From assembly GCA_043803945.1 (NCBI GenBank), contig JAZDJN010000027.1, positions 1 through 64,000 of the forward strand: 64,000 nucleotides of DNA, written 5' to 3'. The notes under the pieces were generated by a model. The model worked only from the letters and a program-made list of their open reading frames with translations. It had not been told where the DNA came from and did not search any database. The position numbers and the translations under genes are program-made. Positions 1 to 48,067 of this stretch are shown one piece after another (the first letter of the stretch is position 1; each line of letters opens with the position of its first letter). Origin of the DNA: a bacterium. GTDB lineage: Bacteria; Bacteroidota; Ignavibacteria; UBA10030.

Positions 1-132
1 ATGCTTGCACGATTAGGTGGGTTCTTAGGACGCAAGGGTGATGGATATCCGGGTGTGAAAGTATTGTGGCGCGGCTTGAGACGTCTCGATGATATTGCTC
101 AAGCCTATCTCATTTTTCAAAGATATGGGTAA
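1..132 (+). CDS. IS4-family (IS50/Tn5-like) transposase, C-terminal end (partial, runs off window start)
   Basis: Frame 1 reads MLARLGGFLGRKGDGYPGVKVLWRGLRRLDDIAQAYLIFQRYG*, matching the LGGFLGRKxDGxPGxKxLWRG dimerisation-domain motif; not in the ORF track. Confidence 0.9.
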   Translation: MLARLGGFLGRKGDGYPGVKVLWRGLRRLDDIAQAYLIFQRYG

Positions 133-28171: not shown

Positions 28172-29437
28172 ATGGATCGACTGACAAAGGCAATACCTCC
28201 CAAATTGATTGCCGCCGGAGCAGTGCTGCTGCTCGCGTTGCCCGTGGTTGTGTATACACGGCTTGTATTTCTTTATATGGTCAACATTCCATTCCATGAT
28301 GATTATGAAATCATTCTGGATTTCATGAATAAGTATCTCCAGGCCGACACCCTTGGAGAAAAACTCTCATTGCTTTTTTCCCAGCATAACGAACATCGCA
28401 TGGTGTTTGGGCGAATTGTGGCACTGGTTCAATATTCCTTGCGTCAGGAGATAAGCCTGAATGACTCTCTGCTGATCGGCAATCTCGGATGGATTTGTGC
28501 GATAGCGATTATTATGATCGTTGCACAAAAGCACTATCGTTTAACTCTGGTCCAACTGTTACCCATTCCCTTCATTCTCCTGATACCGACACACTGGGAA
28601 ACGATGGTCTTTGCTTCTGCTGCAGCAAATTACTGGGTGATCGTTTTTTCACTTGTTTTTATCCTTTGCGTTGTGCACGATCGATTCGTTGGGGCGTGTC
28701 TCTTCTACCTCGCGGCGCTTCTGACATTCGGCAATGGACTGTTGTTGGGCTTGTTGGGACTCTGGTTCTGGGGGCGCCAGAAACGATGGAAACCGTTCTT
28801 TGTGTTTGGTGCGCTGATGGTTGTATCTACGCTTCTTTATTATGTGAATTACCAGAAGCCGGTCGATCATCCAATGGTTTTCGAAACGATTACACAACCA
28901 GGCGCAGTACTATCGTACATCGTTCTGTTTTGGGGCAGCATTCTCCCAATGAAAATCCCTGCCTTTCTGTTCGGCCTGGGAATGATCATCTACGCGATAC
29001 TCCATATGCTGAAGAGAAATCGGGATCACTTCCTGATTATGATTATTCTTTTTGTTGCTCTGACGAGCCTTGCTGCTGCGATCACAAGAAGCGGATTTGG
29101 AATCGAGCAGGCGCTCTCATCGAGAAATTCAATCTACGCACTCCTCCTTGTCGCGTGCTGCTACATTTCTATGATCACCTCAATCAGTCAAACTCAAATC
29201 AGGAATGGCGTTGCTCTCGTGATGATTTTTCTTGCCATACTATTTTGGCACACCAATGCAGCACGGTATGAAACAAAACTGTCGTTAAGAAAGTCTGATC
29301 GAATTGCAGGTTTTGCTAAACTCATCGAGAGGAAAGATCCTGCAAGTCTAATTCATCCGGATCAAATGCGAGCCGCAGCAATTCTCTTTACTGCCGAGAG
29401 TTTACATGTTTATCAGTATAAGCACTGGAATCGATGA
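28172..29437 (+). CDS. Polytopic membrane protein, GT-C-like glycosyltransferase candidate
   Basis: NIPFHDDY and QHNEHR in the first loop, about 10-11 TM helices, ITRSGFG..ALSSR; start uncertain (28016-28172). Confidence 0.6.
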   Translation: MDRLTKAIPPKLIAAGAVLLLALPVVVYTRLVFLYMVNIPFHDDYEIILDFMNKYLQADTLGEKLSLLFSQHNEHRMVFGRIVALVQYSLRQEISLNDSLLIGNLGWICAIAIIMIVAQKHYRLTLVQLLPIPFILLIPTHWETMVFASAAANYWVIVFSLVFILCVVHDRFVGACLFYLAALLTFGNGLLLGLLGLWFWGRQKRWKPFFVFGALMVVSTLLYYVNYQKPVDHPMVFETITQPGAVLSYIVLFWGSILPMKIPAFLFGLGMIIYAILHMLKRNRDHFLIMIILFVALTSLAAAITRSGFGIEQALSSRNSIYALLLVACCYISMITSISQTQIRNGVALVMIFLAILFWHTNAARYETKLSLRKSDRIAGFAKLIERKDPASLIHPDQMRAAAILFTAESLHVYQYKHWNR

Positions 29438-29462
29438 ATACCTCACCGCATGGGACTGTCGT

Positions 29463-30629
29463 ATGAAAAAAATTGCAGTCATATTCGGAACCAGGCCCGA
29501 TACCATCAAATTGGCACCGGTGATTCTTGAGTTGCAGAAAAGCAGCAAGCAGTTCAAGGTGCTCACTATTGCCACCGCCCAGCATCGACAGATGCTGGAT
29601 CAGGTTCTTTCGGTGTTTCATATTACTCCCGATTATGATTTGAATATCATGCAGGCAAAACAATCGCTTGCGAGCATCGTGCACAATACCATCAAAGCAC
29701 TCGATGCGATTCTGGAGCAGGAACGACCTGATCTCGTCCTGGTTCAGGGCGATACCACAACGACATTTGTCGGAAGCCTGGCAGCTTTTTACAGAAAGAT
29801 TCCTGTCGGTCATGTCGAGGCAGGTTTACGGACGTATGATAAATTCAATCCATTTCCCGAGGAAATTAATCGCCGGCTCACAGGCACACTGACTGATCTG
29901 CATTTTGCGCCGACACAAACTTCAAAACGCGCTCTCCTCAAAGAGAACATCCATCCGAAATCCATCTTTGTCACAGGGAATACCGTTATTGATGCATTGA
30001 AGATGACGGTGACCCGTAGGCATACATTTTCATTGCCGGTATTGACTACGATTCTTGCTCAAAAGAAACGAATCATTTTGGTGACGCTCCACAGGCGGGA
30101 AAATTGGGGCGAACCGATGAAGAGCGCATGCCGGGCAATCCGAGCAATTTCTGAGCAGCATCAGGACATCAATATTATTTTCCCTGTCCACTTAAACCCG
30201 ATAGTTCAGGAAGTTGTCCATGCAACATTAGGTAATCTTGATAATGTTTACCTGGTCGCTCCGTTGGAATACCCTGATTTTGTCAATGTGATTGCCAGGT
30301 CGTTTCTTATCATCACGGATTCTGGTGGAGTTCAGGAGGAAGGCCCGCATTTTGGAATACCGATTCTGGTGATAAGAAAAGTTACAGAACGGCCAGAGGC
30401 AGTTGAGTATGGGACTGTGAAACTCGTCGGTACCGGGGAGAAAAAGCTTTTATCCGCCGCAGAGCGTCTTATCACCAACACGCATGAGTATCGTAAGATG
30501 GCTTCTGCCATCAATCCTTATGGCGACGGCCTCTCTTCAAAACGAATTGTTCAGATCATAAAATACTCGCTTGGCATATCACGGACGAAAATCAAAGAAT
30601 TTGTCCCTGGTAAGAAGAGAAAGCAATGA
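29463..30629 (+). CDS. wecB: UDP-N-acetylglucosamine 2-epimerase (non-hydrolysing)
   Basis: FGTRPD, QHRQML, VQGDT, HVEAGLR, PFPEE, TDSGGVQEE, NPYGDG. Confidence 0.97.
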   Translation: MKKIAVIFGTRPDTIKLAPVILELQKSSKQFKVLTIATAQHRQMLDQVLSVFHITPDYDLNIMQAKQSLASIVHNTIKALDAILEQERPDLVLVQGDTTTTFVGSLAAFYRKIPVGHVEAGLRTYDKFNPFPEEINRRLTGTLTDLHFAPTQTSKRALLKENIHPKSIFVTGNTVIDALKMTVTRRHTFSLPVLTTILAQKKRIILVTLHRRENWGEPMKSACRAIRAISEQHQDINIIFPVHLNPIVQEVVHATLGNLDNVYLVAPLEYPDFVNVIARSFLIITDSGGVQEEGPHFGIPILVIRKVTERPEAVEYGTVKLVGTGEKKLLSAAERLITNTHEYRKMASAINPYGDGLSSKRIVQIIKYSLGISRTKIKEFVPGKKRKQ

Positions 30630-30660
30630 GTGATTCCAGAATTTATCCAGGAGAGAAAGC

Positions 30661-33600
30661 TTGATAAACCATTGCACGGAGATGTTTCACGGAAAAGCAG
30701 CAGTGATATCAACCGCATGCCGTTGTCTTGTTCTCATAGTTATTCTTCTATGGTGCTCAGCAACCACATCATATTCGCTTCCTCAATCCAAGACGAAAAA
30801 TATAATCATTCTGGTAGAAGGGGATACCAATCTTAAGAGCATTCCGATGGCCGGCGGGCGGCAGTTAGCAACTCTCTTTGGCCATTTCGATGTGAAAAGT
30901 ACAATCAAAGGTGTTAATCAATATACCGCAGGAGAGATGAACGGTTATGATCTTGTATACTACCTCGGTGACAAATTCAAGAATACTCCACCAACGAACT
31001 TTCTGAACGATATTCTCACCACGCGCAAAGATATTGTCTGGTTGAATACCGGCTTCGCTGAGTTCTCCAAGACCCATGATGTTCAGAAGACATTTGGATT
31101 TTCTGTCAGCGCCATTGATTCTTCCTCCGGCTATGAGATTGTCAAGTCCGGGACCAAGGTATTCACCAAAGGTGATAAACCGACTGCGGTGATCCAGATT
31201 GCCGATAGGGAATTAGTTAAGGTATTGGCGACCACATATTCTCCCTCTCGAAAGAAAGAAATTCCCTACATCGTCAAGTCGAAGAACCTCACATATATTG
31301 GCGACTCTCCCTTCTCCTATGCCAGCGAGACCGACCGCTATCTCCTCTTCGCTGATATGCTGCATGATATCCTCGGTGAGCAGCATGAGGAATCCCATTC
31401 GGCGATTATCCGTATCGAAGATATCAGTCCCATGGATGATCCAGAGAGACTCCGTGATATTGCCGATCTGTTTGCCTCCCACAATGTCCCGTTCCTCGTC
31501 GGCGTGATTCCGTTCTATGTCAATCCTTCCACCGGAACCCGGCTCGGATTATCTGATAAACCGGAGCTGGTGGATGCGCTCAAATATGTGGTGCACAACG
31601 GCGGTGCGCTGGTAATGCATGGCAGCACGCATCAATATAAAGGAGTGACAGCTTCGGATTTCGAATTCTGGAATCAGATGACGAATAAACCAATCGCCGA
31701 TGAATCGGAATCAACCTTCTCGAAAAAGATTGAGTCGGGCATTCAGGAATTCATGAAAAACGGCCTCTACCCGATCGTATGGGAGACCCCCCACTATACC
31801 GGATCCTTTCTATTGTACAAGACCATTGCGAAATACTTCAGCAGTGCAATGGAGCCGCGATTGGCGATTGAAGATATTGACCAAAGCCAGTTCTTCCCTT
31901 ACATCATTGCGAAAGATCTCTTTGGTCAAAAGCTCTATCCTGAGAATCTTGGCTATGTTCCGTTCGATGAGGATCCACGAATCGGCGAGGAAGCAGTTCA
32001 AACGATTTTAAGAGGTGCCAAAGCAAACCTTGCTGTGCGTGACGGGTTTGCTGCTTGTTTTTTTCATTCCTTCAATGAACTCGATTTACTTGAAGAGCTC
32101 GTGGATGGTATTCTTGCGCTTGGTTATAAATTTTATGATTTGCGTGATCAGAATAATTGGGTAAAGACATCCGACAGAATAATTCTGACCGGAAGCCAGG
32201 ACTATACACTGAAACTCAACGGGCAGTATCTCTCCGAAGCGTACTACGATGTTGACGGGCAAATAAAACAGGAGCTGTATTCAGAGAACAGAATTGATGG
32301 CACAATCACCAAATCGATCTCACTGGCACCGGGTGAACTCTACCGCGCAGAACCGGTGGAGTACCGTGAACGGAAGCTGACGATGACTGAGAAACTTGCC
32401 AACAGCCTCGATCGTGCGTACCAGCATATCTTCACTTCAACCGATGTGTGGAAGGAAGCCCGTGTTGCCATTCTCTGGAATCATTATGCGCGCGGCTCGG
32501 CGTACAATGATCAGGCTTCTTTCGCTTCCACATTTCAGAGCATCAACATTAAGGTCGATACTATTTTCCTTGGACAGCAGATCAATCTTCAACCGTATAA
32601 CCTGGTTGTCGTACCGTATGTTTTCATCGACTCCCTTTCGGAGAGTGATTACACAACTCTTGCGGATTACGTGAAACGTGGTGGGAATATGATCACCGAC
32701 ACGAAAAGCTCTCTGACTGATCATTTCGGCATCAAGTTTAGTGAGACAAAAATCAGAATTCGCAGGATCCGCGACCGATTTTTCCCGGAAGAGGCAATCG
32801 CCTGGCGTTATGCCGAACTGGTCAATAAAATTGAGATCGATGATCCCGACGAGATCTTGTGCTCTGATGAGGTTACCCAAATGCCGATGGTGATTGGGAA
32901 GCACGTTGGGAAAGGGAAAATCATCTTTTTCAATTCCCGATTCGATCCTTACTCTCAACAGGGCTATAGTCTCTACCCGTATCTTCTCGAGTATGTGAGA
33001 AAGTTCTTTAATCTCTCGCCGATTGTTCGGAGAGATAACCTCGAAGTATATTTCGATACTGGATTCCGGATAAATTTCAGTACAGAAAATCTGATCAAGC
33101 AATGGGTGACACAGGGGATTCGGATTATCCATGCCGCCGGCTGGCATCAATACCCCCACTTTACATTTGATTATCGGCGCCTGATCGACCTGGCCCATGC
33201 CAATGGAATGCTGGTGTATGCCTGGCTTGAACCGCCGCAGGTGAGTCAGAAGTTCTGGCTTGAACATCCGGAGTGGCGTGAGAAAAATTATAAAAATCTC
33301 GATGTCCAACCTTCATGGCGGTACCCTGTTGCGATGACAGATCCAAAATGCCTTGAAGCCCTTGCACAAGAGTTCAACACTCTTCTGGAGCAGTACGACT
33401 GGGATGGTGTGAATTTGGCAGAACTCTATTTTGAGGCTGGAAAAGGGCTGCAGGAGCCGAACCTTTTTACACCCATGCATCCCTCGGCAAAAAGTGAAAT
33501 CTTTAGAAAATATGGAATCGATATGAATACGGTGTTCGATTCAACATCGGCATCGTATTGGAAGCATCACCCTTCCGTCGAGAATTCCATTACCACATAC

Positions 33601-34656
33601 CGGGTCAATAAGCTCCGTGAGGTCTATGAACTTCTTTTGTCGATGTTCGAAAGGATTGCCCAACAGAAGGCTGGCTTCGAGATTATGGTCACAGCCATGG
33701 AAAGTCTCGGGTCTCCGGAATTGCGGGAATACATTGGCGTGGATATGAAGAGTATTCTAGAACTCCAGAAAAAATTTCAATTTACTTTACAGATAGAAGA
33801 TCCAGAGCTTCGCTGGTCATCTAATCCGCAGCGCTATATTGAAATTGGGAATCGGTACAGGGGGCTTCTTGGCGGAGATTCCAAACTGGCACTGGACCTC
33901 AATATTCTCACCTTCAGGAAGGGAAATGTTGTCACACCGTTTCCCACATTGATTCAAACCGGTACGGAATGTTTTCAGTTGATTCGGGCTGCTGCTTTGG
34001 GTGCCCCACGATTCACGATCTATTCCGAGTCCAGTGTGAATCCTCAGGACATGACGTTCCTCCCATTTGCTGCCTCGCCGCACGTACAATATCGGTATAT
34101 CCAAAATGGGTTTGAATTTTATTCCCCCTATTCTTTTACCTTACAGCTTCCACCGGCAATCACCATCATTACCGTCGATGGAGCATTACTCGTACCACAT
34201 CGCGAAAATCTGTTTACCATTCCGGCGGGAACACATTCGGTTCGTCTGTCACGTGAGTCCATTGGTTCGTTTTCCGCAAGCGACCTCCAGGCAAAAATTC
34301 TTTCCTGCAGCGGGAATCTTACTTCTGTGCTGTACGGGATGCACGATATGAAGTTTACCTATGAATCAACGACCCGGACATTGATTTCGGTGAATCGCAA
34401 ACCAACAGCCATCAAAGTCGACCAGCAGGAGTATCACCCCACCGTAATGAAGGGGAATGATTGCTTCACAATTTTCCTGCCGCCAGGGAACCATGAGGTT
34501 GAGTTAAGAGCGGGCGATGCTATTTCGTACGGCATCAATCTGACATCCATCTGGTCGTCGACCGGCATTGCGATCTTTGGCACTCTCGCGGTAGCGATGC
34601 TTTTCGTTATGTACCTTCTTTTAAAAACCCTTCGAAAAAAGTATTCATCCGTCTGA
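30661..34656 (+). CDS. Multidomain DUF2334 (YdaL-like) polysaccharide deacetylase fused to a TIM-barrel glycoside hydrolase-like domain, with C-terminal TM anchor
   Basis: IRIEDISP, HGSTHQY, WETPHY, FFH (NodB-like); LIDLAHANGMLVYAW, YDWDGVNLAELYF (GHL10/PgaB-like); final TM helix plus basic tail. Confidence 0.8.
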   Translation: MINHCTEMFHGKAAVISTACRCLVLIVILLWCSATTSYSLPQSKTKNIIILVEGDTNLKSIPMAGGRQLATLFGHFDVKSTIKGVNQYTAGEMNGYDLVYYLGDKFKNTPPTNFLNDILTTRKDIVWLNTGFAEFSKTHDVQKTFGFSVSAIDSSSGYEIVKSGTKVFTKGDKPTAVIQIADRELVKVLATTYSPSRKKEIPYIVKSKNLTYIGDSPFSYASETDRYLLFADMLHDILGEQHEESHSAIIRIEDISPMDDPERLRDIADLFASHNVPFLVGVIPFYVNPSTGTRLGLSDKPELVDALKYVVHNGGALVMHGSTHQYKGVTASDFEFWNQMTNKPIADESESTFSKKIESGIQEFMKNGLYPIVWETPHYTGSFLLYKTIAKYFSSAMEPRLAIEDIDQSQFFPYIIAKDLFGQKLYPENLGYVPFDEDPRIGEEAVQTILRGAKANLAVRDGFAACFFHSFNELDLLEELVDGILALGYKFYDLRDQNNWVKTSDRIILTGSQDYTLKLNGQYLSEAYYDVDGQIKQELYSENRIDGTITKSISLAPGELYRAEPVEYRERKLTMTEKLANSLDRAYQHIFTSTDVWKEARVAILWNHYARGSAYNDQASFASTFQSINIKVDTIFLGQQINLQPYNLVVVPYVFIDSLSESDYTTLADYVKRGGNMITDTKSSLTDHFGIKFSETKIRIRRIRDRFFPEEAIAWRYAELVNKIEIDDPDEILCSDEVTQMPMVIGKHVGKGKIIFFNSRFDPYSQQGYSLYPYLLEYVRKFFNLSPIVRRDNLEVYFDTGFRINFSTENLIKQWVTQGIRIIHAAGWHQYPHFTFDYRRLIDLAHANGMLVYAWLEPPQVSQKFWLEHPEWREKNYKNLDVQPSWRYPVAMTDPKCLEALAQEFNTLLEQYDWDGVNLAELYFEAGKGLQEPNLFTPMHPSAKSEIFRKYGIDMNTVFDSTSASYWKHHPSVENSITTYRVNKLREVYELLLSMFERIAQQKAGFEIMVTAMESLGSPELREYIGVDMKSILELQKKFQFTLQIEDPELRWSSNPQRYIEIGNRYRGLLGGDSKLALDLNILTFRKGNVVTPFPTLIQTGTECFQLIRAAALGAPRFTIYSESSVNPQDMTFLPFAASPHVQYRYIQNGFEFYSPYSFTLQLPPAITIITVDGALLVPHRENLFTIPAGTHSVRLSRESIGSFSASDLQAKILSCSGNLTSVLYGMHDMKFTYESTTRTLISVNRKPTAIKVDQQEYHPTVMKGNDCFTIFLPPGNHEVELRAGDAISYGINLTSIWSSTGIAIFGTLAVAMLFVMYLLLKTLRKKYSSV

Positions 34657-34675
34657 CCAGGGAGCCCATCACACC

Positions 34676-35935
34676 ATGTCTGTTTTAGAAATCGATCTCA
34701 GTTTTCTCTTCCTCATCGCAGTCATCCTGATCTGGTTTATGATCGGCTATCAGTTCGTACTGACGCTCTTTGGGTATATCAATTTTATCCGATCCTTAAG
34801 GGAGAAGAACGAGATCGATCAGATGTCGTTTCAATTCCCTCTTTGTACGATCCTCATTCCGGCACATAATGAAGAAAAGGTCATTGCCAAAACGATCGAG
34901 TCGATGTTGAAGCTGAAGTATCCGAAGGAACAACTCCAGATTGTCGTTATTAACGACGGCTCGACAGATGCAACGAAGGAGATTAGTGCGAGATGTGCCA
35001 GAGAAGACTCACGGGTGGAATTGTACGATATTCCCCTCGGTGAAGGCGGTAAAGGAAAATCGAGAACATTGAATCTGGGGCTCAGTGCTGCCCGCGGTGA
35101 CATTATTGCCATCTACGATGCTGACAACACGCCACATGAAGATTCACTCCGCTATCTCGTGTCGCAATTGCTTCTGCATAAGGAGCTTGGCGCTGTGCTC
35201 GGGAAATTCCGGACGGTGAATAAAAACAGGAATTGGCTGACGAAGTTCATTAATATCGAAACCTTAAGTTTTCAGTCCATGCTTCAGGCAGGGAGATGGC
35301 AAATGCATAACATTGCCACGCTTCCCGGAACGAACTACGTGGTGTGGAGCTGGCTGATCAGAAAATTAGAAGGTTGGGATGAAGAGGCGCTGACGGAAGA
35401 TTCTGAGCTGAGTATCCGGATGTACGAAGAGGGATATAAAATTAAATTCATCCCGTATGCTATTACCTATGAACAGGAACCCGAAGAGTGGAAGGTGTGG
35501 ATTAAGCAGAGGGTTCGATGGGTACGCGGCAATAATTATGTGCTCTTAAAATTCCTCAAACATATTCCAAAGTTCAAGAATCGACGGCTGGCGTTCGACA
35601 TCCTCTACACCCTTGCTCTGTACTATATCTTTTTTGCAGCTATTGTAGTCTCCGACCTTCTGTTCCTGATTGGATTGTTCAACCTAGTCAGTATCTCTCT
35701 TCCCGGTCCGTACACGTTTGTCTGGCTTATTGCTTTTATCCTCTTCATCCTGGAAATCATTCTAGCAATCTCATTTGACGAAGAGGATAGTTTCAAGCAA
35801 ATCTGGTTTATTGTGCTCATGTATTTCTCGTACTGCCAGTTGTGGATTTATATCGTGGTGAAGGCTGTCTATGCGGAGTGGATTAAAAAAGAAAAACGGA
35901 CTTGGACAAAAACGATCCGGTTTGATACAGAATGA
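34676..35935 (+). CDS. Processive GT2 glycosyltransferase (YdaM/IcaA-like synthase)
   Basis: IPAHNEE, NDGSTD, YDAD, TEDSEL, QRVRW (D,D,D,QxxRW); N- and C-terminal TM helices. Confidence 0.92.
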   Translation: MSVLEIDLSFLFLIAVILIWFMIGYQFVLTLFGYINFIRSLREKNEIDQMSFQFPLCTILIPAHNEEKVIAKTIESMLKLKYPKEQLQIVVINDGSTDATKEISARCAREDSRVELYDIPLGEGGKGKSRTLNLGLSAARGDIIAIYDADNTPHEDSLRYLVSQLLLHKELGAVLGKFRTVNKNRNWLTKFINIETLSFQSMLQAGRWQMHNIATLPGTNYVVWSWLIRKLEGWDEEALTEDSELSIRMYEEGYKIKFIPYAITYEQEPEEWKVWIKQRVRWVRGNNYVLLKFLKHIPKFKNRRLAFDILYTLALYYIFFAAIVVSDLLFLIGLFNLVSISLPGPYTFVWLIAFILFILEIILAISFDEEDSFKQIWFIVLMYFSYCQLWIYIVVKAVYAEWIKKEKRTWTKTIRFDTE

Positions 35936-38088: not shown

Positions 38089-38194
38089 TATCAGCTTGGA
38101 GTTGTTTGGCTAATTTATCAATGGTCGGAAATGCAGTTTGGAACTTGCATCTCATTCCGGAAATAGGTATCTATTACAGGGTGGAAAAAAATCG

Positions 38195-38545
38195 ATGAAT
38201 AGAAAATTCACACAGCATATTGCAGCCAGCGTCCTTCTGCTCTACCTCTGTGTGGGTTTCCTTGGTAGCCTCGAGGTGATATCGAATCTGTTCCGGCCTC
38301 CGACACCGGTCACCTCTTTCCGGGTATCGAAACCTCTCCCGCCAACATCATGCAAAATCATCTGGACTCAGTATAAGCATATCCCGAGCAGTCCAAAGGT
38401 GGTGGTTCAAACCCAGGCGATACTCACTGATCCAATTTCGATCGAACGAAAAGAATTTTCTACTCTAGTCATTCCTTTTCAGGTTTCAGGATATACATCT
38501 CCTCAACATTCTTCCGGCTCTTCTCGCGCTCCACCTTCAGCATAA
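38195..38545 (+). CDS. Putative leader ORF/arrest peptide ending in RAPP
   Basis: N-terminal hydrophobic segment, Pro/Ser-rich linker, C-terminus SSRAPPSA* (RAPP codons 38525-38536). Confidence 0.7.
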   Translation: MNRKFTQHIAASVLLLYLCVGFLGSLEVISNLFRPPTPVTSFRVSKPLPPTSCKIIWTQYKHIPSSPKVVVQTQAILTDPISIERKEFSTLVIPFQVSGYTSPQHSSGSSRAPPSA

Positions 38546-38574
38546 CATTTCTCAAATCAATACTGTAGACGAAT

Positions 38575-38669
38575 CTTAGAACTCAAGTCTGCTCGTGTTC
38601 TGATAAATTCATTTATACGAATTCATTTCATGCGATGAGGAGCAGAAGAGAATCCTCTCTTGTTCTAAG
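38575..38669 (+). promoter_or_regulatory. Candidate structured RNA between the leader ORF and nhaA
   Basis: CTTAGAAC/GTTCTAAG encloses TCTGCTC/GAGCAGA and AGAGA/TCTCT stems; followed by a pyrimidine run. Confidence 0.45.
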
Positions 38670-38702
38670 TTTCTTTCCACTGAAGTAAGAAGGGTGAGTG
38701 TC

Positions 38703-39926
38703 ATGATTCTATGGCATCGACGAGCTCTTACAAAAAGCACGCAATTGGCAAACAATGTACTGCGTCCATTTCAGGAGTTCTTTCGAATTGAATCGAGTGC
38801 CGGGATTCTTCTGTTCATATGCACGGCAGTCGCATTGTTTTGGGCCAACTCACCGTGGAGTACAACCTACAGTTCCTTCTGGCAGTACAGCCCTGCGGTT
38901 GATCTCGGCAGATTCAAGTTCTCGAAATCCCTTGAACACCTTGTGAATGATGGCTTGATGGCCATCTTTTTTCTCGTTGTCGGATTAGAGATCAAACGGG
39001 AATTGTTAGTTGGAGAAATCTCTTCCTTGAAGAAAGCAGCACTGCCCGTGATTGCCGCGATTGGCGGGATGTTAGTACCAGCCTCGCTATTTCTCTCGTT
39101 CAATTCCGGCACTGAAGGTTCGCACGGATGGGGTATCCCCATGGCAACCGATATTGCCTTTGCCATCGGTGTTCTCTCGCTGCTCGGAAACAGAATACCT
39201 CTTGGATTGAAAGTCTTTCTGACAGCCCTGGCGATCATCGACGACCTAGGTGCCGTTCTGGTAATTGCCTTTTTCTACACCAGCGAGATTAATGGCTCGG
39301 CGCTTATTGTAGCAGGAATGATCTTCCTTTTGCTTCTCCTTCTCAATTACAGAGGAATCCGATTGATTTCGATCTATGTGGTACTTGGATTCTTCCTTTG
39401 GATTGCACTCTTAAAATCAGGCGTGCATGCGACGATTGCGGGGGTCCTGCTAGCCGCAACGATTCCGGCCCAGTTCAACCGGTCATTGGATCAGGAGGGA
39501 GAGGGGACCTCGCCGCTCCAAAAACTGGAACACACGCTTCATCCATGGGTAAGCTATTTCATCATGCCGGTCTTTGCTCTTGCCAATGCCGGGATTGTGG
39601 TGAGTGCCGGCTTCTTATCGGCCCTGACACATTCTATTTCAGCGGGAATCATTCTTGGACTGGTCATCGGCAAGCAGGTGGGGATAACACTCTTCGCATG
39701 GTTGGCGGTGCGCTTGAAGCTTGCCTCGCTGCCGGCACATACCCGGTGGATTCAACTCTATGGAGTTGGCTGGCTGGGCGGTATCGGTTTTACAATGTCG
39801 TTGTTCATCGCCACTCTGGCATATGGTGAGTCAGAGATACTGGCAAATGCAAAATTGGCGATACTAATGGGTTCGGTCATTGCTGGATTTGGAGGATGGG
39901 CGCTGCTGCGCTCTGTACGATCATAA
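38703..39926 (+). CDS. nhaA: Na+/H+ antiporter NhaA
   Basis: NDGLMAIFFLVVGLEIKRE, GWGIPMATDIAF, LAIIDDLGA, SGVHAT, GIGFTMSLF. Confidence 0.97.
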   Translation: MILWHRRALTKSTQLANNVLRPFQEFFRIESSAGILLFICTAVALFWANSPWSTTYSSFWQYSPAVDLGRFKFSKSLEHLVNDGLMAIFFLVVGLEIKRELLVGEISSLKKAALPVIAAIGGMLVPASLFLSFNSGTEGSHGWGIPMATDIAFAIGVLSLLGNRIPLGLKVFLTALAIIDDLGAVLVIAFFYTSEINGSALIVAGMIFLLLLLLNYRGIRLISIYVVLGFFLWIALLKSGVHATIAGVLLAATIPAQFNRSLDQEGEGTSPLQKLEHTLHPWVSYFIMPVFALANAGIVVSAGFLSALTHSISAGIILGLVIGKQVGITLFAWLAVRLKLASLPAHTRWIQLYGVGWLGGIGFTMSLFIATLAYGESEILANAKLAILMGSVIAGFGGWALLRSVRS

Positions 39927-39978
39927 TAATATTTCAACTTACAACGATTTTTTACTTCGAAAATAGAAGGGTTGGCAT

Positions 39979-40188
39979 ATGAAAAAGAATTTTCAATTGA
40001 TAGACATTGTCTTCAGTCTCATAGTTTCTTTCGTTGTGAGCCTCATTCTCTGCGTTGTTTATAGTTTACAAACTGATGAGTATGTCCATATTCATTGGGA
40101 GCTCTGTGCAGTTCTTGCGTTGCTCATCGGAGTTGGAATTCTTTGGAATCAACGGCGCGACAGAAAAGCCCAGGTGAAAAAGCAATAA
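39979..40188 (+). CDS. Small two-TM membrane protein
   Basis: 69 aa, two hydrophobic segments, co-oriented in the cluster. Confidence 0.55.
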   Translation: MKKNFQLIDIVFSLIVSFVVSLILCVVYSLQTDEYVHIHWELCAVLALLIGVGILWNQRRDRKAQVKKQ

Positions 40189-40292: not shown

Positions 40293-40964
40293 ATGCCTAG
40301 TCAAATAGAAGCAACCATCAATTCCCTAAAATCTCTTTGGGAACAACTCCTCCAATTCTTACCTCAATTGCTTATCAGTCTTGGCATTATGGCAGTCGGA
40401 TGGTTCATTGCATTATTGATACGGAAGGGAGTTATTGTCCTCCTTAAACTCCTCCGAGTCGATAAAATGGCAGAAAAAGCTGGGCTCGAAGGTATTCTCT
40501 TAAAAGGTGGTGCTCAGTATTCGACAGTGAATATCCTGGCAAATCTTTTCTATTGGTTCCTGATGTTGGGGCTAACACTCTCCGTCCTTCATAGCCTCGG
40601 ATTAGACACGGCAAAGGAAGTGTTCAATCGGATTATTCTCTACATCCCGAATGTCATTGCAGCTCTCTTTATACTTGTTTTTGGAATGTTTCTGGCAAAA
40701 CTCTTACGGGGAGCACTGCTCACATACCTTACGAATGTCAGAATTTCAGGTGCAGACTTTGTGAGCACGGTAACGTATTGGGCGATCGTTTTTCTTGTCT
40801 TATCAAGCATGCTTCAACAACTGTCGCTCGGTGGACAATTGTTGATCTCGGCGTTCGAAATAGCCTTCGCAGGATTGTGTCTCGCACTCGCCATAGCCTT
40901 TGGCCTGGCAGGAAAAGAGTGGGCTACTCAAATTCTGGAGAAACTCTGGAGAAGCAGTCGTTGA
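40293..40964 (+). CDS. Mechanosensitive-channel TM-helix repeat protein (CmpX-like)
   Basis: FLPQLL..GWFIA, YIPNVIAA, ALAIAFGLAG. Confidence 0.85.
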   Translation: MPSQIEATINSLKSLWEQLLQFLPQLLISLGIMAVGWFIALLIRKGVIVLLKLLRVDKMAEKAGLEGILLKGGAQYSTVNILANLFYWFLMLGLTLSVLHSLGLDTAKEVFNRIILYIPNVIAALFILVFGMFLAKLLRGALLTYLTNVRISGADFVSTVTYWAIVFLVLSSMLQQLSLGGQLLISAFEIAFAGLCLALAIAFGLAGKEWATQILEKLWRSSR

Positions 40965-41019: not shown

Positions 41020-43287
41020 ATGAAGATTACCGTTCGTCTTATTATATCGCTTTTCATAGCGGCCGCCTTTGTTGCTGCTGTGTTTTCCTACCTTCAGGTT
41101 CAGAATGAACGAGATCTCCTTGTTCAAGACCTAACGAGCCGGGCGCGTGTCCTTGGTGAAAGTATGGAGGAAACCATCAAGGAATACATTCAAGCGAATG
41201 CAATGGCAAAACTTAAAAGCACGATATATCGATTCGGCAGAAGGACAAAACTCCTTGGAATTGCAGTTTATGATAATCAAGGGGCGGGTATTGCTTTCAG
41301 TCCAGCGCTGGATTCTACATTCTCGACAACTCCCCCGGAAGTCTGGGAATCAATCACAAGCCTAAAAGCTGTCAGTGGAATGAAGGAGGTGAGCGGTAAT
41401 ACTGTCCATTTATATGTTCATCCCCTGATGGCTGACTCGTCGATTGTTGGAGCGTTACTGTTCTACCATGATGTTTCCTTTATTGATGCAAAGCTCCAGG
41501 GGATCTGGCAGACAAACTTTATTCGTCTGCTTACGCATTTTTTCCTAATTATCGTGACGACCATTCTTGTCGTACGATGGAGTATCAAAGGCCCCATTGC
41601 ACAAATTGCCCATTGGATGCGCGGTTTACGAACGGGAAAATCTTATCAAACAATCCCAATTCCACGGGGTGATCTTCTTGAACCGTTAGCCAATGAAGTC
41701 TCACTGCTTGCAAAAAGCCTCACACAAGCACGAACCGCTGCTCAGGAAGAGGCACGTCTGCGTATAGAAGCCGAGTCACTTTGGACCTCAGAACGGCTAA
41801 AGGAACATGTCAAAATTGAGTTAAACGGGAAAAATCTTTTCGTTATCTCCAACCGCGAGCCCTATATGCATATGATAATGGGAGGAACGATTCAGTGTAT
41901 CGTTCCGGCGGGCGGATTAGTCACTGCCCTTGATCCGATTCTGCGTGCGTGCGGGGGTATATGGATTGCCCATGGGAGTGGCACTGCTGACAGAGAGACT
42001 GTTGATATGCAGGATCGCGTTCAGGTTCCACCAGAGGATCCGACATATTCATTGCGACGAGTCTTTCTCACCAAAGAGGAGGAAGAGGGATACTATTACG
42101 GGTTCTCCAACGAAGGGATATGGCCGCTCTGTCATATTACACACACTCGTCCCACATTTAAATTACAAGATTGGGTTCATTATCAAAATGTCAATGAGCA
42201 ATTTGCAAAAGCGTTGTTAGAAGAAATCCGAAATGAAGAATCTCCCCTGATTTTGATTCAGGATTATCATTTTGCTCTCCTTCCATTATTGATTAAATCC
42301 AAACGCCCGGATGCGAGGGTGGCGATCTTCTGGCATATTCCCTGGCCCAATCCCGAAGTGTTCGGCATTTGTCCCTGGAAACAGGAATTGCTGCTTGGTT
42401 TACTCGGCGCGGATCTTATCGGGTTTCATATCCAATTTCACTGCAACAATTTCCTTGAGACAGTGGATCGTTACTTAGAATCAAAAATCAACTGGGATCA
42501 ATTTTCCGTTGAGCGGCATGGACAACTCACCTCTGTGCGTCCATTTCCTATCAGTGTCGCTCATCCGTATGAGTCTGAAATCAGCACTCAACGGCCAGTC
42601 TCTATCGCTACCAAAGAGTCCTTACTCAAAAAATCTGGAGTTGTTGCTCCCTTCATGGCGTTGGGCGTCGATCGGATAGACTATACAAAGGGAATCGTTG
42701 AACGATTCCAGGCAGTGCGGCGATTCCTGGAAAAATATCCAGAATATGTTGGGAAGTTTACATTCGTTGAACTCGGAGCACCGAGCCGTACGCATATCAA
42801 ACGCTACCACGACCTGATCGCTGAATTGGATGAAACAGTCGATCGCATTAATTGGTCGTTTCAAGCTAAAAATTGGAAACCGATCGTTTTTCTCAAAGCC
42901 CACCATGATCACAAAACCATCGGCGATTATTATCGGGTTGCCGATGTGTGCATGGTCACTTCTCTTCATGACGGGATGAATCTCGTTGCCAAAGAATTTA
43001 TTGCAACACGCACCGATGACGATGGTGTTCTCATTCTCAGTCAATTTGCAGGGGCGGCACGGGAGCTACCCGATGCACTCATCGTTAATCCGTACGATAT
43101 TGAAGAAATGGCTGAAGCGCTTCATCTGGCATTGACGATGGAGAAAAAAGAACAACGTGAACGAATGCAAGAGATGCGAACGGTGGTGAAAGAAAGAAAT
43201 GTTTACCGGTGGGCAGCGAACATTATAACAACCCTCACGCACTTGCGGATGCCCAAGCAACCTGCAGCGATGGAGTCACAACAGTGA
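41020..43287 (+). CDS. otsA: Trehalose-6-phosphate synthase (GT20) with N-terminal TM-sensor-TM-HAMP module
   Basis: SNREP, AGGLVTA, QDYHF, FWHIPWP, GVDRIDYTKG, DGMNLVAKE; about 265-aa receptor-like N-terminus. Confidence 0.92.
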   Translation: MKITVRLIISLFIAAAFVAAVFSYLQVQNERDLLVQDLTSRARVLGESMEETIKEYIQANAMAKLKSTIYRFGRRTKLLGIAVYDNQGAGIAFSPALDSTFSTTPPEVWESITSLKAVSGMKEVSGNTVHLYVHPLMADSSIVGALLFYHDVSFIDAKLQGIWQTNFIRLLTHFFLIIVTTILVVRWSIKGPIAQIAHWMRGLRTGKSYQTIPIPRGDLLEPLANEVSLLAKSLTQARTAAQEEARLRIEAESLWTSERLKEHVKIELNGKNLFVISNREPYMHMIMGGTIQCIVPAGGLVTALDPILRACGGIWIAHGSGTADRETVDMQDRVQVPPEDPTYSLRRVFLTKEEEEGYYYGFSNEGIWPLCHITHTRPTFKLQDWVHYQNVNEQFAKALLEEIRNEESPLILIQDYHFALLPLLIKSKRPDARVAIFWHIPWPNPEVFGICPWKQELLLGLLGADLIGFHIQFHCNNFLETVDRYLESKINWDQFSVERHGQLTSVRPFPISVAHPYESEISTQRPVSIATKESLLKKSGVVAPFMALGVDRIDYTKGIVERFQAVRRFLEKYPEYVGKFTFVELGAPSRTHIKRYHDLIAELDETVDRINWSFQAKNWKPIVFLKAHHDHKTIGDYYRVADVCMVTSLHDGMNLVAKEFIATRTDDDGVLILSQFAGAARELPDALIVNPYDIEEMAEALHLALTMEKKEQRERMQEMRTVVKERNVYRWAANIITTLTHLRMPKQPAAMESQQ

Positions 43288-44123
43288 AGAATCCGGTCTA
43301 TCTATTTTCAGGACGACGAGAATCATGGGACGCGATCGCCCGGAAATTACGCGCTGCTTCCGGCATAGCTCTATTTCTTGATTACGATGGAACATTGACC
43401 CCGATCCGGCGGACGCCATCAGCGGCAGTTCTTACACCGGACGTAAAGAACATTTTACAGCAGTTGGCACAACTTCCGGATGTGTGCGTCGCTATCGTCA
43501 CCGGCAGGTCAATGAGGGATATCCAGAAACTCGTTCGTGTAGATACCCTCGGATTTGCCGCAAATCATGGTTTCCATATGGATATCAATGGAATTGACTG
43601 GATTCATCCTCAAGCTGTATCTCAGAAGAAAGTACTGTCACGACTTCACTCGATTCTTTGCAACGCACTTGCAGCATTTCCTGAACTCTATATTGAGAAC
43701 AAACAATTCACATTAAGTATTCATTATAGGAATGTTGCTGCACATCATGTCCGTTCCCTCAAAGCACTGGTTTCGAAAACCGTACACTCATTTAATCCGA
43801 CACTACAAATAACTCGCGGAAAGAAAATATTGGAAGTAAGACCTCAAATACCATGGGGAAAGGGAGATGCTGTTTTAGCAATGTTAAATTTGAGTAAGAC
43901 TTCTCAACGCCGGATCCCGCTGTTTATCGGCGATGATACAACAGATGAGGATGTCTTTCGAGCCTTGCGTTCGAAAGGGATAACGATACGGGTGGGAAGG
44001 GCGCGATCTACAAATGCGCAATACTATGTGAAGAGCGTCAAGGAAGTTCACGATATACTTCGATTGATCATCTCTCTCAGAGAGAATCGTTCTATCCGCA
44101 CTCGTTCACGTCAGAAGAAATAA
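43284..44123 (+). CDS. otsB: Trehalose-6-phosphate phosphatase
   Basis: FLDYDGTLTPI, VTGR, LSIHYR, LEVRP, GDDTTDED; GTGA overlap with the otsA stop. Confidence 0.93.
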   Translation: MKNPVYLFSGRRESWDAIARKLRAASGIALFLDYDGTLTPIRRTPSAAVLTPDVKNILQQLAQLPDVCVAIVTGRSMRDIQKLVRVDTLGFAANHGFHMDINGIDWIHPQAVSQKKVLSRLHSILCNALAAFPELYIENKQFTLSIHYRNVAAHHVRSLKALVSKTVHSFNPTLQITRGKKILEVRPQIPWGKGDAVLAMLNLSKTSQRRIPLFIGDDTTDEDVFRALRSKGITIRVGRARSTNAQYYVKSVKEVHDILRLIISLRENRSIRTRSRQKK

Positions 44124-44138
44124 GGAAGGAACATCAGC

Positions 44139-45347
44139 ATGCATGCATTAGAAGAATACCGGGACATTGTCGGTGATGATGTTATCGCAGAAATCTATCG
44201 TTTAGCTCGTCCGCTATATGGTAAGAAAATCCTTCATATCAATTCCACCTACTATGGAGGCGGTGTTGCAGAGATCCTCTATTCACTTGTGCCACTTCTG
44301 AATGCCGCCGGTCTTGATGCCGACTGGAGAATGTTGCGAGGTACTCCGGAATTTTTCAACGTCACAAAGAAATTCCACAACGCTATTCAGGGTGAATCGA
44401 TCCGAATGACCGACATCAAGGCAGCGCTCTATTCCGAGAATAATCAGGACTTTGCATCGTATTGCAAGATCGATGCCGATTGTGTGATCATTCATGATCC
44501 TCAACCATTACCACTGATCCGTTTTTATAAGAAACGCCAACCCTGGCTCTGGAGGTGTCACGTTGATCTCTCGCATCCAAACCAAGATCTCTGGCACTTT
44601 CTCAAAGGGTATATCCTTGCCTATGATGGTATCATTGTCTCCGATGAACAGTATGTTCAAAAAGATCTTCCGATGAACTATACTATCATCGATCCTGCTA
44701 TTGATCCACTCTCCTCGAAGAATAGAGTTATCCCGGAGGACCTAATAGAACGGACGCTTCAGAAGTATGATGTCCCCACTGATAAACCATTTATTACTCA
44801 AATATCAAGATTTGACAAGTGGAAAGATCCTGAAAATGTTATTGAAGTATATAAACTTGTGCGGAAGGAATGCGATTGTCGGTTAATACTGTGTGGAAGC
44901 ATGGCAACGGATGATCCGGAAGGCTGGGAATATTTCGAGCGAACGAGGAAGGCAGCAGGATCGTACCTTGATAATAAGGATATCATATTGATTACAGTAG
45001 AGGACAATATTTTGGTCAATGCACTCCAGAGTAAGTCGACCATCATTCTTCAAAAATCGATACGGGAAGGATTCGGGCTCACGGTCACTGAAGCGCTCTG
45101 GAAGGGCAAGCCAGTAGTTGCATCGAATGTTGGCGGTATTCCCCGGCAGTTGATTGATAATAAAACGGGATTTCTCGTGGAGCCGCTAGATATCCAGGGT
45201 TGTGCCGATATCGTGAGTACGATTCTAAAGAATCCAAAGTTGGGTCAGGCACTTGGTGTGAATGGTAAAGAACACGTTCGAAAAAACTTTCTCATCACCC
45301 GGCATGTGATTGATGATCTAAAGCTGCTCAATAAAATATTGAGTTGA
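44139..45347 (+). CDS. treT: Trehalose glycosyltransferring synthase TreT (GT4)
   Basis: HINSTYYGGGVAEIL, IHDPQP, WRCHVD, SRFDKWKDP, EGFGLTVTEA. Confidence 0.9.
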   Translation: MHALEEYRDIVGDDVIAEIYRLARPLYGKKILHINSTYYGGGVAEILYSLVPLLNAAGLDADWRMLRGTPEFFNVTKKFHNAIQGESIRMTDIKAALYSENNQDFASYCKIDADCVIIHDPQPLPLIRFYKKRQPWLWRCHVDLSHPNQDLWHFLKGYILAYDGIIVSDEQYVQKDLPMNYTIIDPAIDPLSSKNRVIPEDLIERTLQKYDVPTDKPFITQISRFDKWKDPENVIEVYKLVRKECDCRLILCGSMATDDPEGWEYFERTRKAAGSYLDNKDIILITVEDNILVNALQSKSTIILQKSIREGFGLTVTEALWKGKPVVASNVGGIPRQLIDNKTGFLVEPLDIQGCADIVSTILKNPKLGQALGVNGKEHVRKNFLITRHVIDDLKLLNKILS

Positions 45348-46072: not shown

Positions 46073-48067
46073 TTGATGCCAGTGGGATCAAAACGATTTC
46101 AACTCCCAAAATTATTAATGCGCCTCACTGCGCCTCCCAGAAACGCGGTAGAGAAGTGGTTTTATCATGGAGGAAAAGTTGATGCAAAATCCCGAAAGAG
46201 CGAAACGCATCCTTGGTACAGAGTACTCTGGCTCACCGGTGTTGATTATTTTTCTACGTTAGGATACCAACCGGGAATTGCCCTCCTTGCTGCAGGAGCT
46301 CTTTCTCCTTTGGCAACGGCTCTTTTAGTAATTGTCACCTTGTTTGGTGCGTTGCCAGCCTATCTGCAGGTAGCACAACGTTCGTATGCCGGTCAGGGAT
46401 CCATCGCGATGCTGGAGAATCTGCTTCATGGATGGAAGGGTAAAATCTTCGTTCTGATTCTCCTGGGATTTGCCAGTACAGATTTCGTTATTACGATCAC
46501 ACTCTCTTCTGCTGATGCAGTCCAGCATCTCCTCGAGAATCCACTTATCGGTCCCTTCTTTGGCGATGCACGCCTGACATTAACAAATATCATGCTGGCA
46601 ATCCTTGCCGGTGTATTCTTAATGGGCTTTACTGAGGCAATCAGAATTGCTGTTTTTGTTACAATACCATACCTGGCATTAAATGCCATTGTCATACTCC
46701 GGTGCATCGTTGAGATCATCCAGCGACCGGAACTATTCACCAATTGGTCAGCAATGCTCTCGCTTCACGGTGATCCAATCATGATCGTTCTGGTCTGTGC
46801 CTTGATTTTTCCGAAGCTCGCTTTGGGACTTAGCGGTTTTGAAACCGGTGTCGCAGTTATGCCGCTCGTATCCTCAGGAGGGGGTGTCTCCCGGGGTCAG
46901 ATACCATTCGTCAGAATCGCTGCAACAAAAAAGCTACTTACCACGGCCGCTCTGATCATGAGCGTATTTCTTATCTCTTCAAGTTTTGTAACGACCCTGC
47001 TTATTTCGGAAAAAGAATTCGCCCTCGGAGGAATAGCAAGTGGAAGGGCATTGGCATTTCTGAGTCATACCTATCTTGGACATACTTTTGGAACGTTGTA
47101 CGATATTTCCACGATCGCGATTCTCTGGTTTGCGGGTGCCTCAGCAATGGCGGGCTTACTCAACGTGATTCCCCGATATCTGCCGCGGTTTGGTATGGCG
47201 CCGCGATGGGTAGCCTACACCCGGCCCCTGGTTATTGTGATCTTTATTGTAAGCCTTATCGTGACAAAAATCTTCAATGCGAGTGTCGAAGCTCAAGGTG
47301 GAGCATATGCCACTGGAGTTCTTGTTCTGATGCTTTCTGCAGCGGTCGCCGTTGCTCTCGAGCTGAAGCGTGAAGCGATGGATAAAGCAGAGTATCTTCT
47401 GGGAAGAATTAAAAAAGTTCTCTTAAGCGGATATTTTTGGGTTATTACGTTGATTTTCACATTCACACTTATTGATAATATTTTCGTTCGCCCGGATGGA
47501 GTGATCATTGCAAGCCTGTTTATTATTTCGATTATTGCACTGGGTGCATTGAGCCGCTACATCCGACAGACAGAATTACGCGTGGAAAGTATGTCGCTTG
47601 TGGATGAGGAGTCACTAGCCTTGTGGCAAAAAATTAAAGGGAAGAAGGTTAATCTTGCACCGTTAAAAGATGAGAATCAGGACTCTATAGTCAAAAAGCA
47701 GAGTGAAATTAGCAGACATTACAAAGTTCAGGGTCCGATAGCATTCGTTCATGTCCATCTTCTCGATAACCGCAGCGAATTTCTGACTCCGTTGCAATTG
47801 AAAATTCGTAGGCGAGGAAAACATTACATGATTAATATCTTTGGCGCTGTAGCTGTCGCGAATAGTCTCGCCTATCTGAGCGAACAGATGGATCCAAAAA
47901 CCATCTTCATTGGTCTCACAGGGCAGAACCTCATGACTCAATCACTAAACTATTTTATTTGGGGAGAAGGCGAGGTGGGACTTTCGGTGTACACCATTCT
48001 TGTTCGATATTGGGAATGGATCGGTGAAGAAAATGAACGGCCGCTAATTTTCTTAATGAGTGAATGA
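46073..48067 (+). CDS. APC-superfamily transporter with C-terminal cytoplasmic domain
   Basis: GVDYFSTLGYQPG, LGLSGFETG, QGGAYATGV; about 12 TM helices. Confidence 0.8.
   Translation: MMPVGSKRFQLPKLLMRLTAPPRNAVEKWFYHGGKVDAKSRKSETHPWYRVLWLTGVDYFSTLGYQPGIALLAAGALSPLATALLVIVTLFGALPAYLQVAQRSYAGQGSIAMLENLLHGWKGKIFVLILLGFASTDFVITITLSSADAVQHLLENPLIGPFFGDARLTLTNIMLAILAGVFLMGFTEAIRIAVFVTIPYLALNAIVILRCIVEIIQRPELFTNWSAMLSLHGDPIMIVLVCALIFPKLALGLSGFETGVAVMPLVSSGGGVSRGQIPFVRIAATKKLLTTAALIMSVFLISSSFVTTLLISEKEFALGGIASGRALAFLSHTYLGHTFGTLYDISTIAILWFAGASAMAGLLNVIPRYLPRFGMAPRWVAYTRPLVIVIFIVSLIVTKIFNASVEAQGGAYATGVLVLMLSAAVAVALELKREAMDKAEYLLGRIKKVLLSGYFWVITLIFTFTLIDNIFVRPDGVIIASLFIISIIALGALSRYIRQTELRVESMSLVDEESLALWQKIKGKKVNLAPLKDENQDSIVKKQSEISRHYKVQGPIAFVHVHLLDNRSEFLTPLQLKIRRRGKHYMINIFGAVAVANSLAYLSEQMDPKTIFIGLTGQNLMTQSLNYFIWGEGEVGLSVYTILVRYWEWIGEENERPLIFLMSE

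Follow-up and report, generated by a model that had tools for sequence, protein, structure and literature searches.

RAPP and RGPP arrest uORFs, ApdA and ApdP among them, were described by Fujiwara et al. in 2025 (PMC12992588). Ribosomes translating ApdA or ApdP arrest with two proline codons occupying the P and A sites. The arginine of the motif is irreplaceable in mutagenesis, whereas the alanine can be replaced fully by glycine and partly by serine, aspartate, or proline (PMC12992588). A RAPP leader class with diverse targets, antiporters included, is already published there, and this type of target is not wholly new. An earlier note on the DNA analyzed here had listed only protein-translocation genes and metal importers as known targets; in the source data of PMC12992588, "cation:proton antiporter" is already an enriched class of downstream genes (75 RAPP versus 81 AAPP, 3.6-fold). 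The questions left open in that paper include RAPP arrest of genes beyond protein export and the source of the releasing force. Its supplement file 8 contains RAPP uORFs before cation:proton, K+/H+, and MrpA-type antiporters in several unrelated genomes (with locus tags such as ATU_, GS_, HALTITAN_, and AMETH_).

CruR, a DUF2946 protein of Bordetella pertussis, carries a CxxC at residues 90 to 93, 45 residues before the RAPP at 139, and this spacing is conserved and needed (PMC9426467). In VemP, spaced cis elements between the signal and the arrest site tune release in SecY (PMC11470409). The spacers of Sec monitors, by comparison, are variable (PMC10987492). Our literature searches listed no publication on the leader family described below, nor any in which arrest controls nhaA or trehalose genes. 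The terms "antiporter" and "osmo" had 0 matches in the main text of PMC12992588, as did NhaA, trehalose, Ignavibacteria, and mechanosensitive in those of its supplements that were readable; its larger files may bear on novelty.

A putative arrest leader upstream of nhaA

We analyzed a 64,000-nucleotide stretch of contig JAZDJN010000027.1 (assembly GCA_043803945.1; Ignavibacteria, UBA10030), referred to here as the window. On its positive strand, an ORF running from ATG 38195 to TAA 38545 encodes a 116-residue leader that ends in SSRAPPSA. The features of the leader and of the genes behind it are as follows.

38195..38545, + strand: leader ORF, putative arrest peptide of 116 aa (ORF and homologs)
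38219..38263, + strand: N-terminal hydrophobic segment, approximately residues 9 to 23, signal anchor or signal peptide (hydropathy; Tyr17 conserved)
38363..38386, + strand: WTQYKHIP core, residues 57 to 64, with His62 49 residues before Arg111 (family alignment)
38525..38536, + strand: RAPP codons, Arg111 to Pro114, predicted stall site (placed by comparison with PMC12992588)
38703..39926, + strand: nhaA, encoding a Na+/H+ antiporter; GTG 38694 is an alternative start (PF06965, E 3.7e-153)
39979..40188, + strand: S2, 69-aa two-TM protein without a family match, directly behind the leader in 10 relatives (ORF and profile)
40293..40964, + strand: CmpX-type protein with MS channel TM helices (PF05552)
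41020..43287, + strand: OtsA, trehalose-6-phosphate synthase extended at its N terminus by a membrane region (PF00982 at residues 273 to 739)
43209..44123, + strand: OtsB, trehalose phosphatase (PF02358)
44139..45347, + strand: TreT, trehalose synthase (PF21269)

The coordinates and hydropathy agree with the earlier note, which had reported a 116-aa ORF with an N-terminal hydrophobic segment and this C-terminal end. The distance to nhaA, put there at about 160 bp, is 157 nt to ATG 38703 and 148 nt to GTG 38694. The co-oriented order nhaA-cmpX-otsA-otsB-treT was likewise recovered from Pfam names on the same strand (NhaA, CmpX-type, OtsA, trehalose phosphatase, and TreT), but the S2 gene between nhaA and cmpX had been overlooked. 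A TTG start for the leader at 38138 was ruled out because homologs and the promoter support ATG 38195.

The leader ORF is a genuine gene, and its features exceed chance expectation. Among the 69,546 six-frame segments of at least 40 aa in this genome, 43 ended in R[AGS]PP no more than 10 residues from the stop. The leader was the sole intergenic segment among these 43 with a strongly hydrophobic stretch. In the 2,396 ORFs of at least 300 aa of the host genome, RAPP occurred 0 times versus 21 times for AAPP. The AlphaFold2 model of the leader consisted of one helix, residues 3 to 33, and an unfolded remainder (pTM 0.33).

Elsewhere in the window, positions 46073 to 48067 encode a 664-aa multi-TM protein with no Pfam or NCBIfam match. 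Positions 29406 to 35935, upstream of the leader locus, hold an ORF that by eye resembles a sugar epimerase, a 1331-aa DUF2334 protein, and a GT2 glycosyltransferase, likely a surface-polysaccharide cluster.

The leader family and its fixed spacing

A single-sequence search of a large protein set returned the query itself only, so profiles were required to find homologs. Running phmmer over cluster representatives gave 27 matches including the query, and genome searches gave homologs too. In the 277 genomes of the host order, a 31-row profile had matches in 94 and a 113-row profile in 127. Outside the order, leader profiles matched in 4 of about 337 genomes of the class, one of them strongly, and in 1 of about 224 genomes of the phylum (E 6.5e-4). 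Named family records belong to Ignavibacteriaceae, Ignavibacteriales, Ignavibacteria, Bacteroidota/Bacteroidetes, or MAGs labeled "bacterium." The leader had no Pfam match in the search of the window ORFs. The family is without a Pfam match, concentrated in the host order, and rare beyond it. The ESM Atlas provided leads only, namely, unnamed clusters of 117 to 119 aa, DUF6769, and CzcI, with structure matches at TM <0.5.

Matches to the first profile comprised 112 distinct leaders. Nine were dropped: six without the terminal motif (four stop-shortened, one HSPP, and one RDLP) and three with truncated or unclear starts. The remaining 103 are kin rather than independent observations. Members are about 113 to 120 aa long and consist of an N-terminal hydrophobic helix, a WTQxKHxP core, a drifting linker, and a C-terminal R[ADSPG]PP. 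The terminal motif was RAPP in 54 leaders, RDPP in 28, RSPP in 12, RPPP in 3, RDPS in 3, RGPP in 2, and KAPP in 1; the residue after the arginine was thus A in 55, D in 31, S in 12, P in 3, and G in 2. All five are among the residues with which ApdA and ApdP retain arrest, fully or in part (PMC12992588). Off-consensus ends (KAPP, RDPT, RDPS, and HSPP) occur in some members; the few KAPP or HSPP ends differ from ApdA and ApdP, where the arginine is irreplaceable. RDPP and RSPP members would have been missed in PMC12992588 because extraction there used RAPP and RGPP only.

The arginine lay at residue 108 to 117 in 102 of the 103 leaders, and the stop codon came two codons past the second proline in 80. 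From the end of the TM segment to the stall site we counted 84 to 92 residues (median, 89), and the N terminus was basic. The core sits 47 to 54 residues from the arginine; the His-to-Arg distance was exactly 49 in 72 of the 103 leaders and 48 to 51 in 82, with no KH or RH in 17. Among 91 nonredundant members, residue identity was 0.32 in the core and 0.10 in the linker, and identity at the three codon positions of RxPP was 0.85, 0.87, and 0.29, which together argue for selection on the peptide and its length. Set against the variable spacers of Sec monitors (PMC10987492), the near-invariant length speaks for an element whose position is critical.

Sixty-four held-out metagenome loci yielded 20 new leaders besides 28 known ones, 13 duplicates, 2 off the contig, and 1 without the motif. 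Although these leaders were picked by the core and not by spacing or RxPP, all 20 ended in RAPP or RPPP with a His-to-Arg distance of 49. The profile search that the earlier note had proposed thus found TM segment, core, and RxPP kept in homologs. Its other expectations held as well: WTQxKH recurs across the family, bar the members without KH or RH, the linker drifts, and the RAPP-type C terminus is conserved at the peptide level. CxxC is absent from this leader, as stated in the note, and occurred in 0 of the 103 members beyond residue 30.

The fixed spacing can be read in another way, with the same arrest output. The WTQxKHxP core would itself sense an ion, pH, or a partner protein, fold, and pull the chain, much like the CxxC of CruR in response to copper, and the TM segment would be secondary. 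The 49 residues between His62 and Arg111 equal those between Cys90 and Arg139 of CruR, where the spacing is conserved to 1 to 2 residues and the export signal is dispensable (PMC9426467). In addition, all 31 aligned sequences run from core to RxPP without a gap, except that one row has a one-residue insertion within the core. However, the distance from the TM segment to the stall site is just as tightly fixed, the core decays in distant members to the point of losing KH/RH, CxxC is missing throughout, and AlphaFold2 shows no folded domain. We consider direct sensing by the core unlikely, if the most durable of the alternatives.

Small membrane proteins and ion or osmolyte genes behind the leader

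SD-ATG words were enriched 3' of the leader and mark unannotated genes. Of the 103 leaders, 53 had S1 as the first gene behind them, 10 had S2, 8 an Lpp-like lipoprotein, and 3 S3; the remaining 29 had none of the four there. S1 is a protein of about 44 aa with a C-terminal TM segment and comes first behind leaders of 31 genera. Its profile gave 101 matches in 86 of the 277 genomes, 88 of them directly behind a leader (78 no more than 500 nt from a listed leader and 10 more in 20 inspected regions). Several leader-S1 units lack any further same-strand gene. S3 has an N-terminal TM segment, is 41 to 60 aa long, and is often second behind S1 (L066:864-992 and relatives). It presumably resembles the small subunits of MetS-type transporters. 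The leaders and S1 to S3 had no significant Pfam or NCBIfam family, no NCBIfam model was reached at cut-off by S1 to S3, and S1 had no PDB relative. The leader system thus exposes three small membrane-protein families without a match in the libraries searched. Homology between S1 and S2 was ruled out (hhalign probability, 4%), and the 100-aa ORF cut-off largely accounted for leaders that had seemed to be orphans in front of opposite-strand genes.

The genome of the window (G000) is without S1 and S3; S2 lies behind nhaA, and the leader before nhaA is kept. S2 is part of the leader system, and nhaA may at some point have been placed between the leader and S2. In G156, S2 is likewise immediately 3' of nhaA. 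The ribosome-binding regions of nhaA (38688-38695) and S2 (39966-39973) have AGAAGGGT in common.

Ninety-five leaders had enough downstream sequence for a count of NhaA, Mrp, CPA exchanger, OtsA, TreT, DUF5752, CmpX, and MscS genes. At least one such gene lay on the same strand within 3.5 kb of 45 leaders (25 of 40 genera), versus 32 of 5,278 control ORFs (0.6%) in G000. The link held for 23 of 24 leaders in the host family and for 11 of 37 in family f7. No ion or osmolyte gene was found near the other 50 leaders, which had other envelope or secreted-protein genes instead. The other targets are large secreted proteins, a GNAT/nitrilase fusion, TolC/AcrB, a P-type ATPase together with CLC, and an Lpp-like lipoprotein accompanied by a LysM protein. 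None of secA, secDF, and yidC appeared among 65 annotated downstream representatives. Conversely, 67 NhaA matches were found in 58 genomes, and of the 57 nhaA genes whose 5' end was examined, 30 had the leader in front and 27 did not; four of the latter had <900 nt of sequence or a leader behind them. Paralogous leaders head separate units within one genome (convergent in G142, flanking nhaA in G193, and divergent in G273), which is the behavior of a cis element. The osmostress target proposed in the earlier note is supported for the 45 leaders and not for about half, which head other genes, and nhaA as the immediate target does not generalize, since a small membrane protein comes first in most relatives (74/103).

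These counts could also reflect a generic secretion or envelope monitor, with S1 as the true conserved output and the osmotic genes as neighbors inherited with the cassette. The prevalence of S1 in first place, its near-confinement to positions directly behind the leader, the leader-S1 units that end there, and the copies in genus g105 that head an Lpp-like lipoprotein and LysM protein, TolC/AcrB, or a P-type ATPase and CLC all favor such a monitor. Yet 25 of 40 genera show the association with ion/osmolyte functions, through different genes (NhaA, Mrp, CPA exchanger, OtsA, TreT, MscS, and CmpX), and G000, without S1 and S3, nonetheless has the leader before nhaA. We judge a generic monitor improbable.

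Several further arrangements were seen around the loci. OtsA (41020-43287) is extended N-terminally by about 270 aa that include two hydrophobic segments and are common to many relatives (cluster 1); judged by eye, the protein resembles a membrane sensor joined to trehalose-6-phosphate synthase. At L076 (G273:C6:56568-57299), a divergent leader pair lies about 180 nt apart, and one leader ends in HSPP before a GNAT/nitrilase fusion. Fusions of GNAT and a carbon-nitrogen hydrolase stand behind 10 of the 95 leaders (L166, L169, L101, L103, and others) and also beside nhaA. Second, more diverged leader-like ORFs occur in tandem in one unit at L156:1939-2307 and L236. Genus g105 has up to four leader paralogs per genome; at eight loci (L111, L115, L119, L124, L125, L128, L137, and L138), the leader precedes a gene for an Lpp/OprI-like lipoprotein and, after it, one for a coiled-coil LysM protein. 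In two genera (L162 and L170), a diadenylate cyclase (CdaA/DAC) gene on the opposite strand adjoins the leader unit.

Promoter, spacer, and predicted pairing with the next ribosome-binding site

The pattern TTGHHH-16..18-TANNNT was present just 5' of 60 of the 103 leaders versus 1 to 3 of 103 in three control windows. In the 64,000-nt window, the relevant elements are the following.

38145..38173, + strand: sigma70-like promoter candidate TTGCAT-17-TATCTA, a near match to the family pattern whose -10 departs from TANNNT
38546..38702, + strand: spacer of 157 nt, with no promoter pattern, Rfam family, or + strand terminator-like site in scans
38526..38538, + strand: anti-RBS strand overlapping the RAPP codons, predicted partner 38689-38701 (duplex of -17.1 kcal/mol, present in one free-state fold)
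38689..38701, + strand: nhaA ribosome-binding region (sequence and predicted duplex)

A generic promoter scan of the window did not have the leader promoter among its sites. A promoter for nhaA inside the spacer, which the earlier note had named as a point against leader control, did not appear: the pattern is absent from the spacer of the window, and in relatives it is present in 5 of 28 longer spacers before nhaA. In 22 of the 60 promoter matches, the -10 box ends 5 to 7 nt before the start codon, implying leaderless mRNAs. A riboswitch for Na+/Li+ or c-di-AMP was rejected after an Rfam search of 20 loci gave just one tRNA at gathering score, and no strong local RNA structure was found in the window (z of -1.0).

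Pairing between leader ends and the next RBS was examined in 48 loci, one per genus and target. In 42 of 48 loci (z of -6.5), the predicted duplex of the 20 nt starting at R+10 (counted from the first base of the Arg codon) with their own next RBS was better than the noncognate median, and for the interval starting at R+20 this was so in 34 of 48. The other 12 leader intervals gave |z| of at most 1.5. At S1 loci, pairing in register 15, one of 16 registers tried, exceeded genus-level permutation (p of 0.012) and fell below all 1,000 GC-matched shuffles. A-U/G-C swaps occurred at two pairs (p of 0.035 and 0.014; 29 genera), one of them involving the third base of the stop codon, versus p of 0.5 to 1.0 for off-register controls. 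Blocking the ribosome footprint in fold predictions raised mean RBS accessibility from 0.30 to 0.45 (43 loci). Held-out pairing was weaker, at 10 of 16 (z of -1.5) and 12 of 16 (z of -2.3), and the longest uninterrupted helix was barely longer than in the control (7.0 versus 6.3 bp).

For the window itself, the unpaired fraction of the RBS rose from 0.19 to 0.42-0.52 in a shorter fold and from 0.30 to 0.37 in a fold including the nhaA coding sequence, where the opening energy fell from 15.0 to 13.3 kcal/mol. The predicted gain is about 1.8 kcal/mol because the nhaA coding sequence offers alternative pairing. Locus-specific pairing of the last leader codons with the next RBS is statistically supported as a prediction from the sequences, and is modest in this window.

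A stalled ribosome might instead shield a C-rich rut site, as in CruR, so that release lets Rho terminate in the spacer, an attenuation that could act jointly with RBS masking. An excess of C over G begins 150 nt before the arginine and lasts until about 60 nt past it (peak, +0.24); in the 30 noncoding nt past the stop, the excess is +0.12. The genome encodes Rho, and the spacer is near the 162 nt of CruR, which its authors judged too long for coupling (PMC9426467). At four-fold degenerate sites, however, C-G stays at about 0 until the last 15 codons (+0.08); the excess of C is thus mostly Pro and Ser coding, and the pyrimidines past the stop are explained by locus-specific RBS pairing. Attenuation by Rho has a low probability in our estimate, and the comparison favors predicted RBS masking, unlike in CruR.

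It is very improbable that the leader is nonregulatory, a small exported protein that serves some function by itself and carries RxPP incidentally. Conservation of the TM segment and core is what a functional protein would show, but the leader has no fold past one helix, the rest of the proteome excludes RAPP, the stop follows PP by two codons in most members, and the leader end is complementary to the next RBS.

Proposed mechanism

The locus belongs to a conserved class of RAPP-type leaders, with stalling itself predicted by analogy. On balance, we think that it acts in cis as a ribosome-arrest leader by translational coupling, with a SecM/CutF-like stall unmasking the next RBS. Judging from the promoter pattern, the leader would be the first gene of the transcript. 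Its N-terminal helix would target the chain to the Sec translocon. As in ApdA, ApdP, and CruR, the ribosome would stall at RxPP, with the two proline codons in the P and A sites; with about 89 residues from helix to stall, the core would then have barely left the exit tunnel or be within the translocon. The stalled ribosome would sit over the final codons and the stop, a stretch that may otherwise pair with the next RBS some 70 to 200 nt away. Expression of NhaA or a small membrane protein would thereby be turned on, and by way of these genes that of the nhaA/trehalose/MscS operon.

The least certain step is what governs release. We suggest tentatively, and with some doubt, that pulling frees the stall in normal growth and that salt, osmotic, or ion-motive-force stress slows translocation and prolongs it. 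If a stall opens the RBS, a prolonged stall would turn the operon on, which fits slowed translocation under salt or osmotic stress. By analogy, the fixed core spacing fits CruR-like, ligand-driven folding equally well.

A broader proposal, about which we are more doubtful still, is an order-wide salt/osmotic regulon controlled by nascent-chain force sensing. A Cys-free WTQxKHxP at CruR-like spacing would convert the membrane or ion state into stalling, and the stall would unmask NhaA/trehalose genes and new small membrane proteins. RAPP uORFs linked to antiporters in other phyla would then follow this logic convergently, as possible salt-sensing leaders. If this is true, a group of environmental bacteria switches on salt defenses by sensing the pull on its own nascent protein, and translational arrest joins the known controls of NhaA and trehalose synthesis. 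New here are the unannotated small membrane protein behind the leader and the pairing of the leader end with the RBS. The family is a test case with a putative nonmetal signal, a fixed-distance core, and a predicted RNA switch with natural compensatory changes, and it offers natural RAPP/RDPP/RSPP strength variants with a presumed salt-response output.

Comparison with known systems

The leader resembles the uORFs of PMC12992588 in being small, in having an N-terminal localization signal >30 residues from the arrest site and a C-terminal RxPP, and in preceding a co-oriented gene. By eye, the WTQxKHxP core was not seen in 30 antiporter rows (of 90 occurrences) of the accessible source data of that paper.

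Like CruR (PMC9426467), the leader is the first gene of an operon, with an export signal, a mid-chain motif 45 to 49 residues from RAPP, and a long spacer, and its His occupies the position of Cys90 of CruR relative to the arginine. Unlike CruR, it has neither CxxC nor copper genes, and DUF2946 matched 0 of 113 members at E 0.1. CutF, a DUF2946 member of Rhodobacter capsulatus (10.1101/2025.02.05.636593), is similar to the mechanism predicted here in that a stall during cotranslational secretion melts a stem-loop that hides the next RBS. It differs from the leader in its copper signal, its proline-rich motif, and its DUF2946 membership.

In SecM and VemP, too, a stalled ribosome opens an SD-masking stem-loop, as is predicted here. 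VemP has a role in salinity adaptation. The output of SecM and VemP is the Sec machinery, whereas that of the leader would be ion/osmolyte genes and small membrane proteins, and the spacer length is far less variable here. By analogy, the leader would work like SecM, CutF, and CruR while being neither a DUF2946 member nor a monitor of Sec genes.
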